The translations under genes and the position numbers were made by a program. The notes under the pieces are model-generated. The model saw only the letters and a list, made by a program, of their open reading frames with translations, made no database searches and was not told where the DNA came from. A stretch of DNA of 64,000 bases from Ruminococcus bicirculans (ex Wegman et al. 2014) (GTDB lineage: Bacteria > Bacillota > Clostridia > Christensenellales > DTU072), in the NCBI GenBank assembly GCA_963642145.1, contig CAVIFU010000001.1, positions 4,645 through 68,644 of the forward strand, given 5' to 3'. Below, piece after piece: positions 38,486-44,515 of the stretch (the stretch's first letter is position 1; every line of letters starts with the position of its first letter).

Positions 38486-38858
38486 AAGTAAAATATAACA
38501 CATTTTGCGAATAAATACAACCATAAAATAAATATTTTTGCGGAATCGTATTGTGCGATCGAGAAGAAATTGAAACGTTGAAAGATACCGATCGAAGAAT
38601 TGTTTGTAAAGCGAAACCATATTACCATACGCATGAAAACTTGGTCCGGTCGGACTTTATAAGATACTATAAAAATTATTCGAGCGCGATCAAATGATAA
38701 GCTTAAATCATAAAAAACAATACGTTGCGGCTCGGAGAATTTGAGCTATAAAAAATTATGCGAATAGATAGCTCGGATTTGAGAAAAATCGGCCAAAAAC
38801 AAGTTTTACCGAAAAACAGCCATAAATTATCAAAAATCAACCACTCTCGGACGCTATT

Positions 38859-38886
38859 TATTCGCAAAACTATTGTTTTGCGAATA
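38859..38886. repeat. perfect 12-bp inverted repeat TATTCGCAAAAC-tatt-GTTTTGCGAATA downstream of the island operon
   Basis: Read directly. Each arm contains the recurring TTTGCGAATA motif. Confidence 0.8.
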
Positions 38887-38901
38887 GTTATTTCAATACC
38901 C

Positions 38902-39420
38902 TCATTTTCGCCTATTTTTTACGTCTTTTTTTCGCGACGTCCAAAAAGACTTTCTCATCACTTCTTCACGCTTTCGACGTGCCTCTCGTTGCTTCTCGTC
39001 ACACTCTTCCCACTCGTCATACGTTGTATACAGCTCTCCGTCAAGGTAGCCCTCTCTGTCTGACTCAACCTCTTCCTCCGCTCTGTCTTTACGCCGTTCG
39101 CGAAGCTCTTCCATGCGCTCTGACGGCGTCTTCATCTTACTAAACTCTTTCGGCATGTATAACTCCGTCAGCATTTTACAGATCTCTATCGGTGACTTAA
39201 AACTACGGTACGTTATCTTATCGAAGTCAAAGCTCATCACACGGTAGCAATGCAGGCTTGTACGCTCTATCATATGTATCTCCGTAAATATCACTCCGCG
39301 CGCCCTTCCGAGCCTATATAACACGAAATCGGTATAACTGTTACAGGCATTCATCTGATAATAATCGAGAATCCCGTACGTTATCATATTCATCAACAAC
39401 CAATCCCACGTAAAGCTCAT
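38902..39420 (-). CDS. hypothetical protein (172 aa; hydrophobic/aromatic N-terminal half, highly charged E/R/K-rich C-terminal half)
   Basis: ATGA overlap with the upstream NTPase gene; AAGGAGA SD. I recognise no family. Confidence 0.7.
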   Translation of the reverse strand: MSFTWDWLLMNMITYGILDYYQMNACNSYTDFVLYRLGRARGVIFTEIHMIERTSLHCYRVMSFDFDKITYRSFKSPIEICKMLTELYMPKEFSKMKTPSERMEELRERRKDRAEEEVESDREGYLDGELYTTYDEWEECDEKQREARRKREEVMRKSFWTSRKKDVKNRRK

Positions 39421-41765
39421 TTAAGTTGTCTCCTTCTCTGTTCCTCATAGCCTCTCTCATAGCCCTTCTGCCATGCCTCAAAGCTTGCCTCTTCTTGCTC
39501 CGATATCTTTTCCTTCCGTTTAACGTCTGCCTTGTAAAGCCCTTTTAGATACTTTTCAAAGCCCTTCTCCTCTGTCGGAGCCGGCGTCTCTTTCTTTTTG
39601 GTGCCGAATAACGAGCTCATCAGGTAACTGTTTTGCAGTTTCATCTCCCCCAACGTCGCTCTGACGCCGGCGTATTCCTTGTAATCCCTAAGCCCTTTAC
39701 CGCTCTTAATAGCTTTCTTCTGGAAATAGTCCGCAAAGCAGTCCGTTGCATATCTATCAGCATATACGACCTTATTAAGTAAATAATACCGTTCCGAAGT
39801 TATGCTGCCGTCCATAGTTCCGGCTTCAAGGCTTAACGCCAATTCACATATACCGTACTTACTCTTGATACGCTCTTTTCTGTCAAAGAACAACTTGACG
39901 GTATGCTTCAATAAGTACATTATCAGCGTATTATCGCCTCTGTAATACCTAAATTTATAATATACGTCGGAGAATTTATCGCAAAGCCATGTACAAGCGT
40001 CATATTCCAGTAGCCCTAACGGCAAAGCATATCTCTCCGGCAGTTTATCGTCTATATACGTTATCGTCGTAAGCTCCCTGTTATCCGCATTCAGACTCTC
40101 CGGGCGTTGATCGTCACAGAACAACTTGAAGAACGGATAATAGTCAACCGTCGAAGGGTGTCTACACAGTTTCAAGAACGTATTAAAGCCATCATTCTTT
40201 TGGTTAGCGAAATCATCGTCCTTGCGAAGTCCTTGACTCTCTACCTGATTGAGTCTCTCCTTACCTATCTCAGATATATTGAGTACGCCGAACTCCAAAC
40301 TCCCGGATAGCGGATTCTCAACTACCACTTGCTTAGTGGGGCGCGTGACATCGAAGTCTAAGATCTTACTGTAATGCCCGCACAACGTAGCGTTAAAGCT
40401 CTCCCGGCAAATCGAATCGTTGTTCCAAAGCGGAAAATTACCTTGCGTATCGAGCTCATCGTCTACACGTATAGCATAGTTACTTATATTAAAGTTGTCA
40501 CATGTATAAATAAAGAATGCTGCGCAATATGTACGGATAACATCCTCCAAGTATTCTATTTTATTGCCGGAATTATAGGTATGCGGTAAATCTAAAGAGT
40601 AATCAACGCAAATTACGTCTTCTACCGCCCTGTCAGGATGTCTACGGTTATGACGCTCCACGCAACGCTTTACAAGTCCCGGCGTTAGCATGTAAATAAA
40701 CATGTTAGCGAAGTTATTAGCGGTAGCTAAATTGTAAATGTCTCCGCGCTCCAGACTGTTGATAAACACCTGCTCCAATACTCCCCACGGAAAGTCAGGA
40801 AACTTCATGTCGCATTTATACAAGATCTCATATGCCTTATCACGGAAATTAGCCCGACAATTTAGCGCAAGTGACGTTGCAAGCAAAGTTTTCCCCTTGC
40901 CCATATTCCCGGCAATAAAGGTACAGGTAGGAAGCTCCTCCACGAATGCCCTATTAGCTCCGTCCAATCTATGCAATACTTTATCCGCGCGGCGGTGACG
41001 CCACACGTCAAAAAGTACAAGCCCTATCACGATCCAAATCGGTACCGGAAGCCCTGAAAACATTAAACTCAAATCAAGCACAAGCTTATATAACTGCTTA
41101 TAGATTGTAGTTACGTCGAAGGTGCACGAGAAATGGAAAAAGTACGCCAACACCGCGCACAGTATCGAAACAACGTTCAAATTCAACAGCCATATACAAA
41201 GCCATATATACGGATACGCTTTATTAGTACTCAAGAAATCGATATACGTACGTATATATTCTTTTACAGGATAATAAGTCTTGTCAAGCGCACCCTTATA
41301 TGCTTTCAAAGGCTTAGACTCTTCTCCGTGATCATTATTCTCCCGGTAAAACAACGTCTTAAAGAGCTGATACATAGCGATAACCAGAGCGACGATTATT
41401 CCGCCGAAGGCACTGCCGACAAAGAATACATCGAAGACCTTCTCAAGGTAAGCCATAAAATTAGACTTATCCGCAAAACTTGACCAATACGCCAGGAACT
41501 TAGTAACAAATACCGGGTAATCATCTTTAATGGGATACGTCGCAACAGACTCTCCCACCACCGTAGGTGCAAGATCTCCGGGGATCTCGAATATAGTCTT
41601 GTAATAATATACAACCGATAAAGCAAGATCGCGCACGGTTTCTCCAAAACGAATATAACTTGCACGATAGACAAAAGCGCCGAGCAGCACGAATAACAAC
41701 GTTATACCCCACGCTATATAGTGTCTATGATTCAATTTTTGGAAAAACTCTTTTATCTTCTTCAT
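39417..41765 (-). CDS. multi-pass membrane P-loop NTPase, Zot/pI-like (filamentous-phage assembly ATPase-like)
   Basis: 782 aa with ~5 hydrophobic segments in residues 16-254. Walker A is GNMGKGKT (res 286-293, nt 40887-40910). Walker B candidates are AIRVDDE (431-437) and VLNISE (494-499). Downstream, FLKLCRH....FKLFCDDQRPESL resembles the Zot 'RH.G.D....Q' block. Confidence 0.8.
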   Translation of the reverse strand: MKKIKEFFQKLNHRHYIAWGITLLFVLLGAFVYRASYIRFGETVRDLALSVVYYYKTIFEIPGDLAPTVVGESVATYPIKDDYPVFVTKFLAYWSSFADKSNFMAYLEKVFDVFFVGSAFGGIIVALVIAMYQLFKTLFYRENNDHGEESKPLKAYKGALDKTYYPVKEYIRTYIDFLSTNKAYPYIWLCIWLLNLNVVSILCAVLAYFFHFSCTFDVTTIYKQLYKLVLDLSLMFSGLPVPIWIVIGLVLFDVWRHRRADKVLHRLDGANRAFVEELPTCTFIAGNMGKGKTLLATSLALNCRANFRDKAYEILYKCDMKFPDFPWGVLEQVFINSLERGDIYNLATANNFANMFIYMLTPGLVKRCVERHNRRHPDRAVEDVICVDYSLDLPHTYNSGNKIEYLEDVIRTYCAAFFIYTCDNFNISNYAIRVDDELDTQGNFPLWNNDSICRESFNATLCGHYSKILDFDVTRPTKQVVVENPLSGSLEFGVLNISEIGKERLNQVESQGLRKDDDFANQKNDGFNTFLKLCRHPSTVDYYPFFKLFCDDQRPESLNADNRELTTITYIDDKLPERYALPLGLLEYDACTWLCDKFSDVYYKFRYYRGDNTLIMYLLKHTVKLFFDRKERIKSKYGICELALSLEAGTMDGSITSERYYLLNKVVYADRYATDCFADYFQKKAIKSGKGLRDYKEYAGVRATLGEMKLQNSYLMSSLFGTKKKETPAPTEEKGFEKYLKGLYKADVKRKEKISEQEEASFEAWQKGYERGYEEQRRRQLK

Positions 41766-41779
41766 GGTTGATTAAATAA

Positions 41780-41872
41780 CTACATATTAACTCCGGTATA
41801 TACAAGGTATCCGATAAAGAACGCAAGCCCCAATACGAATACAAATCCTACAATTCTTCTAAAAGTTTTCAC
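41780..41872 (-). CDS. 30-aa single-TM peptide (V/M)KTFRRIVGFVFVLGLAFFIGYLVYTGVNM; candidate coat or minor virion/membrane protein
   Basis: Not in the ORF track because it is too short. The GTG start overlaps the TGA stop of the upstream gene (GTGA), with GGAGA 4 nt upstream. It ends 14 nt before the NTPase start. Confidence 0.5.
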   Translation of the reverse strand: MKTFRRIVGFVFVLGLAFFIGYLVYTGVNM

Positions 41873-44027: not shown

Positions 44028-44260
44028 GCACAAGCACGGTGTCCACTCCGAGAGGCTTCTCGGCGCGTCCCCCCCCGGGCGGTAGCCCGATAAGAAAATC
44101 TATGGGAGACAGCTCTTGTCCCCCCAAGCCCCCTTCTCATAATTTTCCCCCGATTCGTGGCTCCACATAAACCGTGTGCCCCGCGTCTCGAATGACATTT
44201 TTGGGGTTATCAACATTTTTTAGACATCACAATTAGAGCGCCCGGCGCTCTTTTCATTTT
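44028..44260 (+). other. GC-rich, C-tract-rich structured segment ending in a terminator-like hairpin; candidate ncRNA, long 3' UTR or ssDNA origin/packaging region
   Basis: C8 (44069-44076), C6 (44120-44125), C5 (44129-44133), C5 (44147-44151), C4 (44179-44182). Local hairpins are CCGAGA-ggct-TCTCGG and GGGAGAC..GTCCCCC. Possible long-range pairing CACGGTGTCCAC / GTGG..ACCGTG. AGAGCG-cccgg-CGCTCT plus a T-run lies at 44235-44260. There is no ORF of 60 aa or more on either strand. Confidence 0.4.
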
Positions 44261-44308
44261 ATCTGCAATTTTTAGAAAAAATTACTCTTTACTTAATTTC
44301 AATCTATT

Positions 44309-44350
44309 TTGTCAAAATAACTTGACAACGTCTTTTTTAGTATATATAAT
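44309..44350 (+). promoter_or_regulatory. second copy of the operator palindrome plus TTGACA-17-TATAAT promoter
   Basis: TTGTCAA (44309-44315) N6 TTGACAA (44322-44328); -10 at 44345-44350. Nearly identical to 42551-42592. Confidence 0.6.
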
Positions 44351-44356
44351 CGTCTC

Positions 44357-44432
44357 AATGGTAACGCGATTCCTTGTGAATCATGGCTTCTGTTCTTTAT
44401 GAATGATGGCACGGCGTTACCATTATTTTTTT
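44357..44432 (+). ncRNA. third copy of the hairpin sRNA (same closing stem and inner GATTC/GAATC hairpin, diverged central part)
   Basis: AATGGTAACGC (44357-44367) / GCGTTACCATT (44414-44424) followed by T7. Confidence 0.45.
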
Positions 44433-44467
44433 GTCTTCTTTAAGTAATTGTCCTTAGCTTTATCACC
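44423..44467 (-). pseudogene. 3'-terminal remnant of a third Lys-rich small-protein gene (..GDKAKDNYLKKTKK*)
   Basis: Reverse translation gives GDKAKDNYLKKTKK-stop, versus GDKAKDNYLKKIKK-stop in the 119-aa ORF. An in-frame stop lies a few codons upstream and there is no start. Confidence 0.6.
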
Positions 44468-44515
44468 GTTGTTCCTTGTCCACGTTTATAGCCGATTGAC
44501 AAAGCAATAATGAAA

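Follow-up and report, generated by a model that had tools for sequence, protein, structure and literature searches.

A Rep-less, integrase-less island beside ynbB in Ruminococcus bicirculans, a probable remnant of an inovirus-like element

Analyzing a 64-kb stretch of contig CAVIFU010000001.1 of Ruminococcus bicirculans (assembly GCA_963642145.1), hereafter called the window, we found an island of six open reading frames (ORFs) at ~38.89-44.47 kb, between ynbB and a conserved 11-6-11 palindrome. Its largest gene encodes a membrane-anchored P-loop NTPase of a family that we name c0, whose other members belong to integrating elements, most of them with a replication initiator (Rep). We consider it probable that the island is a remnant, without Rep and integrase, of a chronic, inovirus-like element that multiplies by rolling-circle replication (RCR).

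Genes of the island

The ORFs, named by their length in amino acids, are as follows.

38902-39420, minus strand: ORF172, an orphan protein, coupled to ORF782 by a 4-nt overlap
39417-41765, minus strand: ORF782, membrane-anchored P-loop NTPase of family c0, intact and full length
41780-41872, minus strand: ORF30, a 30-aa peptide with a single transmembrane (TM) segment and a basic N-terminus
41869-42534, minus strand: ORF221, acidic, with one N-terminal TM anchor; 243 aa if started at an upstream TTG
42665-43024, minus strand: ORF119, basic, isoelectric point 10.0, paralogue of ORF112
43237-43575, minus strand: ORF112, basic, isoelectric point 10.1, family c19

Overlaps of 4 nt join ORF221 to ORF30 and ORF782 to ORF172, and the coupled minus-strand operon described in a first-pass annotation of this DNA is confirmed in its ORF coordinates and in both overlaps. 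The two basic proteins of ~115 aa singled out there are ORF119 and ORF112, with isoelectric points of ~10. A role in binding single-stranded DNA, hinted at there by their position, is not supported; in relatives, the gene V position is taken by another protein, c5. Nothing housekeeping had been seen in the island, and this holds for all six ORFs, none of which matches Pfam, PHROGs, NCBIfam or PADLOC.

ORF782 has at least four N-terminal TM segments, a Walker A motif (GNMGKGKT) at residues 286-293, a Walker B-like VLNISE with the invariant glutamate E499, and the conserved motifs GKERxN, NQKND and DDQR. In the family alignment it keeps all family-invariant residues, and it is 61% identical to the NTPase of locus L001. 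ORF30 is homologous to c8, a peptide of ~47 aa that stands directly ahead of the NTPase in relatives (60% identity to L001; 25.7 bits with the c8 hidden Markov model, HMM). Like its c8 relatives, it has a single TM segment with a basic N-terminal and an acidic C-terminal side, the reverse of classical major coat proteins, and neither ORF30 nor the c8 peptides match a coat-protein family. ORF221 is homologous to two L001 proteins and weakly matches the c4 family of anchored proteins (HMM, 15.6 bits). ORF112 belongs to c19 (HMM, 92.7 bits; 48% identity to L007/L008) and ORF119 is a weak member of the same family (21.7 bits); in several relatives, c19 sits between a large surface protein and the NTPase. 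ORF172 occupies the place of the coupled tyrosine integrase in the closest relatives, L001 and L176, and matches no family in Pfam, PHROGs, NCBIfam, PADLOC or the HMMs of the relatives' protein clusters.

The c0 ATPase family and its intact relatives

A word-indexed protein search returned 18 relatives of ORF782, and an exhaustive profile search gave 1285 clusters (50% identity) at E<=1e-3 and 642 at E<=1e-30, with hundreds of full-length c0 proteins of ~720 aa. The Walker A lysine (GxMGKGKT) and a glutamate within hhhh[ST]E-IGKERxN are invariant across their alignment, and the motifs NQKND and DxQR are conserved. The soluble ATPase domain is confidently modelled by AlphaFold from 147 sequences (predicted local distance difference test, pLDDT, 92.8; predicted template modelling score, pTM, 0.88).

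Zot/pI-like motifs had been read into the NTPase by the first-pass annotation, a claim that did not survive closer comparison. PF05707 (Zot) has no match at E<=1 in ORF782 or in any of 66 diverse c0 members; hhalign aligned the P-loop alone, both with M13 pI (7% probability) and with a 20-sequence alignment of Ff pI proteins (19.7%); and no fold match was significant (best E 0.11). Thus, the likeness is limited to the P-loop, and we reject Zot/pI homology of ORF782. The c0 HMM found no match in M13, phage B5, Spiroplasma SpV1 (including its 715-aa ORF1), MV-L51 or plasmavirus L2, and the family profile found nothing among PDB sequences at E<=10. Foldseek searches with the full-length ORF782 model (pLDDT 68.5) gave nothing significant in PDB or BFVD. 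The coupling protein TcpA appeared at a non-significant Foldseek E of 1.5, and 2R2A, which we take to be an entry of a Zot N-terminal domain, is not among the best 50 PDB fold matches listed. Moreover, the Pfam domains FtsK_SpoIIIE, TraG and T4SS-DNA_transf have no match in the 66 c0 members. Judged from its sequence, c0 is a predicted membrane ATPase without detectable relative among known proteins.

Loci of relatives were collected from exact-protein look-ups, IMG/VR (2 loci), GenBank phages (1 locus) and a metagenome scan (80 loci), in which a c0 relative was confirmed in 346 of the first 600 candidates, so that there are at least 346 loci. Gene orders were mapped in 89 loci, many of them cut by contig ends, with proteins clustered locally. 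We found that c0 homologues sit in 10-14 kb elements in which a regulator, either a helix-turn-helix protein or a LexA-like/UmuC/YolD cassette, is followed by small ORFs, c5, c4, c3, c1, c8 (or c19/c27/c36/c41), c0 and c2. The c5 protein (~116 aa) lies in the gene V position; c4 (~360 aa, one to three copies) and c3 (~199 aa) have an N-terminal TM segment; and c1 (470-740 aa) carries, besides its signal peptide, two TM segments near the C-terminus and a basic tail. Directly downstream of c0 comes c2, an HUH-type Rep that matches PF23343 REP_ORF2-G2P (43.2 bits, cutoff 27.8) and also phrog_3419 (rolling-circle initiation). Presence among the 89 loci ranges from 75 for c1 and 66 for Rep (c2) to 53 for c3 and 47 for c4. 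PHROGs and Pfam gave no function for c1, c3, c4, c5, c17 or c19 of the relatives.

Up- or downstream of this module, the relatives carry an integrase or transposase. A tyrosine integrase is translationally coupled to the NTPase in L001, L004 and L176, and others have DDE transposases, identified by eye as IS30-like (c23) or IS481/IS3-like (c22). Two contigs, L004 (14.1 kb) and L096 (14.5 kb), have circular-type terminal overlaps. One element type is delimited at 12.8 kb by ends that are 99% identical across four contigs, and its copy in L102 is flanked by a 27-bp direct repeat, AAGTATGGATTTTCCGAAAAGTTTTAT, at 2292-2318 and 15097-15123. With homologues of its NTPase, TM peptide and basic protein in 10-14 kb elements that have PF23343 Rep and integrases, two of them on circular contigs, the mobile-element origin proposed for the block in the first-pass annotation is upheld. 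The self-contained units of 12.8-14.5 kb contain no capsid, terminase, portal, lysis or type IV secretion system (T4SS) gene. By tblastn, no c0 homologue was found on 72,556 plasmids (PLSDB), and a single record was found among GenBank phages, an unverified 57-kb 'Bacteriophage sp.'.

In L102, the 27-bp repeat contains a difSL-like half-site, TTTCCGAAAA, and the 12.8-kb element is inserted ~35 bp upstream of a Xer-like gene; the same element lies elsewhere in L094, L099 and L101. Some relatives carry cargo, named by eye: an ADP-ribosylating exotoxin-like gene (PF03496) in L004 (12690-13382, minus strand), and a LexA-like/UmuC-like/YolD-like cassette at the regulatory end of L164 (771-2971) and similar loci. 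A link of the relatives to mutS was rejected, the neighbor in question (c12) being a mobile-element protein with a MutS-domain-I-like region and not the host mutS.

From this gene set, the window copy keeps only distal genes: two c19-type basic proteins, a c4-like anchored protein, a c8-like peptide and c0, along with the orphan ORF172. By tblastn with all proteins of the 89 loci, we found no trace of c1, c2 (Rep), c3, c5 or the element integrase in the island, and no integrase or transposase lies within 38.9-44.5 kb. The first-pass annotation had seen no replication gene in the island, and tblastn with 66 family Reps confirmed this and extended it to the whole window. Among the fetched loci that are uncut there, the window is the only c0 copy without a recognizable c4-c3-c1 module upstream, and it is also without Rep; L149 and L152 have unclustered large ORFs in the position of the module. 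Lacking the c4-c3-c1 module and Rep, and with an orphan ORF172 in the place of the integrase, the island is therefore taken as a truncated derivative and not as a complete element. Since the retained genes do not include Rep, c5, c3, c1 or integrase, it must be inherited with the chromosome and, as far as the searches show, would be unable to replicate alone. The retained ORFs are intact and ORF782 keeps its invariant residues, so decay, exaptation and helper dependence can all be accommodated.

The insertion site and the non-coding features

The island lies among the following genes, and a palindrome marks its left edge.

35103-36608, minus strand: padR-like (PadR-TM) gene, left flank
36618-37304, minus strand: lexA, left flank
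37421-38620, minus strand: tyrosine recombinase, left flank; probable true start MAKERYY at ~38485
38859-38886, no strand: perfect 11-6-11 palindrome TATTCGCAAAA-CTATTG-TTTTGCGAATA at the left island edge, 15 bp past the ORF172 stop
44516-45751, minus strand: ynbB, right flank (PF06838, 549 bits)

On the right flank, ynbB is followed by miaA, mutL and mutS, all on the minus strand, and the flanking gene set given in the first-pass annotation, with its uniform orientation, agrees with the ORF map and the profile matches. Among 185,579 species genomes, the best ynbB match has 53% identity, so the host has no close relative there. The most syntenic genome, a rabbit-gut Clostridia metagenome-assembled genome (L014), has mutL-miaA-ynbB, 2.3 kb of unrelated small ORFs, a recombinase gene, hflX, lexA and padR; its recombinase is 47% identical to that of the window, and the c0 block is absent from the locus. 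The view that the block is an insertion is thus borne out by the nearest host relative of the same synteny. In Acutalibacteraceae, an xer-like match starts 0.37-0.74 kb after the ynbB match. By the conserved synteny in L014 and Acutalibacteraceae, the recombinase is a host gene and the ynbB-xer spacer a variable site. As the integrase of the element, the recombinase was rejected: its synteny is kept in L014, and in L102 the corresponding gene, 54% identical to the window recombinase, lies outside the mapped element ends.

The best NCBIfam match of the recombinase is XerS (PRK05084; 177 bits, below the cutoff of 267). The palindrome has the consensus TATTCG[CT]AAAA-N6-TTTT[GA]CGAATA and stands beside orthologous XerS-like genes in three genomes, whose proteins are ~50% identical. 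Allowing 0-1 substitutions, the 11-6-11 pattern occurs at four sites in 2.75 Mb of fetched DNA (one in the window, two in L014, one in L102), and weaker matches with 3-4 substitutions occur in L083, L120, L142 and L144. In all three genomes it lies 0.2-0.4 kb upstream of the recombinase gene. The L014 palindromes (11697-11724 and 13563-13590) flank a 1.8-kb insert between ynbB and the recombinase gene, and that of L102 (15220-15247), with the 12.8-kb element taken out, is ~190 bp upstream of the recombinase. The 11-mer is present in exact form four times in the window, all within 37380-38886; the half-sites at 37380-37390, 38503-38513 and 38756-38766 include lone copies in the promoter regions of lexA and the recombinase gene. 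At the right end, a search of 42.5-44.56 kb turned up neither a second dif-like site nor a convincing half-site. Streptococcal xerS adjoins its own site, difSL, and hijacking of Xer is known for filamentous phages (PMC5357621). The XerS-like best match, the adjoining palindrome, a terminus-like skew switch and the difSL precedent together make a XerS/dif-like single-recombinase module plausible here. The palindrome is a candidate dif-like recombination site or, alternatively, an operator, and it is conceivable that the island originated as an integrative mobile element exploiting Xer (IMEX).

Several observations concern the same region. At ~35-38 kb, both the GC and the AT skew change over together with gene orientation, in the manner of a replication terminus; plus-strand genes on the left and minus-strand genes on the right converge at 35049/35103. 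The replication terminus probably lies within the window. The lexA promoter region (37322-37390) and the recombinase promoter region (38489-38542) share stretches of ~79% identity. A LexA box, AGAACTTATGTTTG, lies at ~37352-37365 upstream of lexA and is the only one in 35-46 kb, for which reason SOS control of the island was rejected. In Acutalibacteraceae (L020, L021, L022, L040, L070, L088), a palindrome, AACTAAACAAAAT-GAAT-ATTTTGTTTAGTT, follows a promoter just downstream of ynbB, and a second, GTGAAACTGTTTCAC, lies ahead of the xer-like gene; the two resemble operators or leader hairpins.

Base composition qualifies the description of the island as AT-rich in the first-pass annotation. Its mean G+C is indeed lower (39.9% vs 46.5-47.2% in the flanks), but values of 33-35% are confined to 41.75-43.75 kb and 38.25-39.0 kb, and ORF782 and ORF172 are host-like, with 43-45% G+C and 50-55% G+C at third codon positions (GC3). 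In contrast, GC3 is 29-36% in ORF221, ORF30, ORF119 and ORF112, making the island a compositional mosaic.

The non-coding DNA of the island holds the following features.

42546-42711, no strand: left copy of a 166-bp direct repeat, with the ORF119 3' end, a small-RNA unit and the region just upstream of ORF221
42564-42676, plus strand: candidate cis-antisense small RNA, copy L; 12/12 sigma-70 promoter at 42564-42592, RNA at 42599-42676
43700-43911, minus strand: likely operon promoter and leader; 12/12 sigma-70 promoter with extended -10 at 43911-43883
43990-44150, no strand: G+C-rich patch with hairpins, 160 bp with 59% G+C, within the AT-rich spacer
44304-44469, no strand: right copy of the 166-bp repeat, with a truncated ORF119-like 3' end and small-RNA copy R; ends 46 bp from the ynbB stop
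44322-44434, plus strand: candidate small RNA, copy R; 12/12 sigma-70 promoter at 44322-44350, RNA from 44357 to ~44434

The right ~0.9 kb had been described as non-coding and ending in a truncated gene copy, which is correct for 43576-44515, the copy being the right arm of the direct repeat. The two repeat copies are 88-94% identical and spaced by 1758 bp, and the last ~45 nt of ORF119 lie in the repeat. Because the repeat holds the ORF119 3' end, its right copy would be the relic of a second ORF119-small RNA-ORF221 junction, which points to a former tandem or duplicated arrangement cut by deletions rather than to att sites.

Each small RNA of ~75 nt would form an 11-bp outer stem and two inner hairpins, a three-way fold, followed by a U7 tract (minimum free energy -26.0 kcal/mol and z -6.8 for copy L; -23.7 kcal/mol and z -3.3 for copy R). 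The promoter, outer stem and U-tract are conserved between the copies, and the differences cluster in the inner loops. Copy L faces the operon transcript in antisense at its ORF119/ORF221 junction, and by this arrangement the pair probably damps ORF221-ORF782 expression in cis. The promoter at 43911 is likely that of the operon, with an attenuator or a short transcript: a leader of ~300 nt ahead of ORF112 contains a terminator-like hairpin (43725-43700), its overall fold not being significant (z -1.6). Neither the leader nor the small RNAs match an Rfam family, and the G+C-rich patch has no Rfam match and no similar DNA in the fetched loci or phage records. The Rfam scan of the window found a tRNA-Trp only, outside the island, and nothing credible in 42.45-44.56 kb, and blastn of the non-coding parts and the repeat against the fetched loci and phages returned only the L014 palindrome. 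Far from the island, a weak tblastn match of the c5 family at 6361-6552 (E 4e-4, small database) is probably due to chance.

Nature of the island and comparison with known systems

The most fitting reading of the window copy is that of a defective derivative, perhaps dependent on a helper or exapted, of a member of a large, uncharacterized family of 10-14 kb integrative elements in gut Clostridia, which, judging by gene content and order, would be phage-like. Taken by itself, the island is nothing out of the ordinary, being an integrated element that is defective. The first-pass annotation had found its size, gene sizes and gene order to fit a Gram-positive filamentous prophage; this interpretation is partly supported, as the mobile-element origin is upheld and the Zot/pI homology is not. 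Of its closing alternatives, a degraded or satellite inovirus or an element type not yet described, degraded and undescribed are fair terms and satellite is a weak one, since the island lost Rep and not the morphogenesis genes.

Several results weigh against a chronic, inovirus-like parent. The searches detect no coat protein, no gene V protein and no Zot homologue in the family. Its ATPase-domain model, despite a pLDDT of 92.8, has no significant PDB match by Foldseek, HerA (E 0.11) being the best and AAA+ proteins following. The family is nearly absent from viral collections, with two IMG/VR contigs and one unverified GenBank record. No att sites were found, as the first-pass annotation had also reported for convincing att repeats, and no relative close enough to offer an empty site was available (best ynbB match, 53% identity). 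Finally, all ORFs of the island are intact and tightly coupled and the GC3 of ORF782 is host-like, which fits retained function as well as decay.

We nevertheless hold that the island is probably what is left, after loss of Rep and integrase, of an inovirus-like RCR element with a chronic way of life. The intact members would be non-lytic DNA elements extruded through the membrane over a chronic infection: Rep would produce single-stranded circles, c5 may bind this single-stranded DNA (ssDNA), the membrane proteins would assemble at the membrane, and c0, held there by its N-terminal helices, could power export or assembly, as pI does in filamentous phages. The island is probably expressed from the strong 43911 promoter and checked by the antisense small RNA at the ORF119/ORF221 junction, and its 166-bp repeat suggests a tandem or duplicated ancestor later reduced by deletions. 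A further-reaching proposal, which we put forward only tentatively, is that, in gut Clostridia, the elements marked by c0 represent a new lineage of family rank, made up of ssDNA viruses with a chronic, non-lytic life cycle or of secreted virus-like elements, in which an unrecognized membrane export ATPase replaces Zot/pI and which inovirus detectors and viral databases have missed; the island would then be a Rep-less derivative beside a XerS-type dif module, under antisense-RNA control, and possibly an exclusion device or a helper-dependent IMEX. Separate status for the family is likewise possible rather than probable.

Alternatively, the family could consist of integrative elements that are mobilizable or conjugative; c0 would then be a coupling protein of a novel kind that translocates DNA, the HUH protein a relaxase, the anchored proteins surface or adhesion factors, and the island a relaxase-less remnant. 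A membrane ATPase followed by an RCR-type nuclease and joined by an integrase within 10-14 kb is a layout that resembles streptococcal integrative mobilizable elements (IMEs) and actinomycete integrative and conjugative elements (AICEs), several loci adjoin mobile-element genes (PcfJ-like, MutS-domain-I protein), and the fold matches to HerA and TcpA, weak and non-significant, point the same way. However, none of the 66 c0 members matches FtsK_SpoIIIE, TraG or T4SS-DNA_transf, the 72,556 plasmids carry no homologue, the self-contained elements of 12.8-14.5 kb have no T4SS genes, and the nuclease domain is of the inovirus/plectrovirus G2P type. Moreover, four to five conserved membrane or secreted proteins and a protein in the gene V position travel with the ATPase, and these would be superfluous for mobilization. 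We regard this origin as unlikely.

Two other explanations concern the island rather than the family. It may be a module that the host has exapted and retained, for example for superinfection exclusion of related elements or membrane export, and not mere decay; this is suggested by six intact, translationally coupled ORFs with every invariant residue of ORF782 kept, by the host-like GC3 of ORF782 and ORF172, which suggests long residence, by perfect-consensus promoters and small-RNA stems that are conserved while loops differ, and by the absence of mobility genes from the island. The block is found at this locus in one genome only and is missing from the syntenic relative, PADLOC gives no match and ORF172 is an orphan, so that we give exaptation a small chance. 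Still smaller is the chance we give to a helper-dependent satellite or IMEX, integrated at the dif-like palindrome by the host XerS-like recombinase and using the Rep and structural proteins of an intact relative. The island encodes no integrase, a perfect 11-6-11 palindrome, conserved beside the orthologous recombinase in three genomes, lies 15 bp from its left end, the locus coincides with the switch in GC/AT skew and gene orientation, and two palindromes flank the 1.8-kb insert in L014; both the neighborhood of xerS and difSL and the use of Xer by filamentous phages are known (PMC5357621). Yet the right end has no second dif-like site or half-site, the palindrome could be an operator in view of the lone half-sites in the lexA and xer promoters, and no origin or Rep-recognition sequence was identified. 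Filamentous satellites of the RS1/CTX type also keep Rep and lose morphogenesis genes, and the island is the reverse.

Whatever its origin, the c0 family is large, common in gut metagenomes and absent from Pfam, PHROGs and PDB, and its ATPase is unlike those of all described Tubulavirales. If viral, it would bring to the virome of the human gut a common but unseen group of non-lytic phages (1285 protein clusters and no fewer than 346 metagenome loci, with three records in the viral collections searched) and a new type of membrane ATPase for DNA export or virion assembly that is confidently modelled yet matches nothing solved. Through their cargo genes (toxin-like, LexA/UmuC/YolD), the elements could affect host physiology. 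The palindrome and recombinase suggest a XerS-like single-recombinase dimer-resolution module in a Clostridial lineage, which may be a landing pad for mobile DNA. As a defective relic, the window copy alone is of modest importance.

Among known systems, Plasmaviridae (Acholeplasma phage L2) and pleolipovirus-like membrane-vesicle viruses share with c0 elements a small, non-lytic, integrating genome, putative structural proteins that are membrane proteins throughout, a large envelope-like protein with a signal peptide, and small basic proteins. Unlike c0 elements, L2 has no c0-like ATPase, and none of its ORFs has HMM-level similarity to them. The L2 record has two replication origins with DnaA boxes, and L2 is not known to have a G2P-type Rep. 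Firmicutes IMEs and AICEs also place a membrane P-loop ATPase beside an HUH nuclease and an integrase in an integrated element of 10-14 kb, but c0 elements have no FtsK, TcpA or VirD4 domain, their nuclease is of the phage G2P type, and they have extra conserved membrane or secreted proteins and no plasmid-borne relatives. The dif-site arrays of CTX-phi, RS1 and TLC-phi (IMEX) resemble the island in being integrase-less beside a dif-like site near the terminus, with a repeat structure that hints at a former tandem array; in contrast, the island has one candidate dif-like site and a single XerS-like recombinase with its putative site, and it lost Rep rather than the morphogenesis genes.

Compared with Tubulavirales (Inoviridae, Paulinoviridae, Plectroviridae), c0 elements are larger (10-14 kb) and have no recognizable major coat or gene V protein, their ATPase of ~730 aa with 4-6 N-terminal TM helices has no detectable Zot/pI homology, and the window copy is without Rep, whereas a true, stand-alone Zot domain is present in inoviruses published from gut Clostridiales (PMC10061712, PMC8530359). 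In common with Tubulavirales are a small genome (5-15 kb), a G2P/ORF2-type HUH Rep (PF23343) in the relatives of the island, a membrane ATPase preceded by a large protein with a signal peptide and a small peptide with one TM segment, the absence of lysis, capsid and terminase genes, and circular forms. Integration, too, is by a tyrosine recombinase or by a DDE transposase of the IS30-like kind, for which Spiroplasma SpV1 offers a parallel. In ~30% of inovirus-like species the morphogenesis protein is 'atypical', having a TM domain at its N-terminus, and some of these may prove to be separate groups (Roux et al. 2019, PMC6813254). Thus, although homology is undetected, the topology of c0 has a precedent among inovirus morphogenesis proteins.

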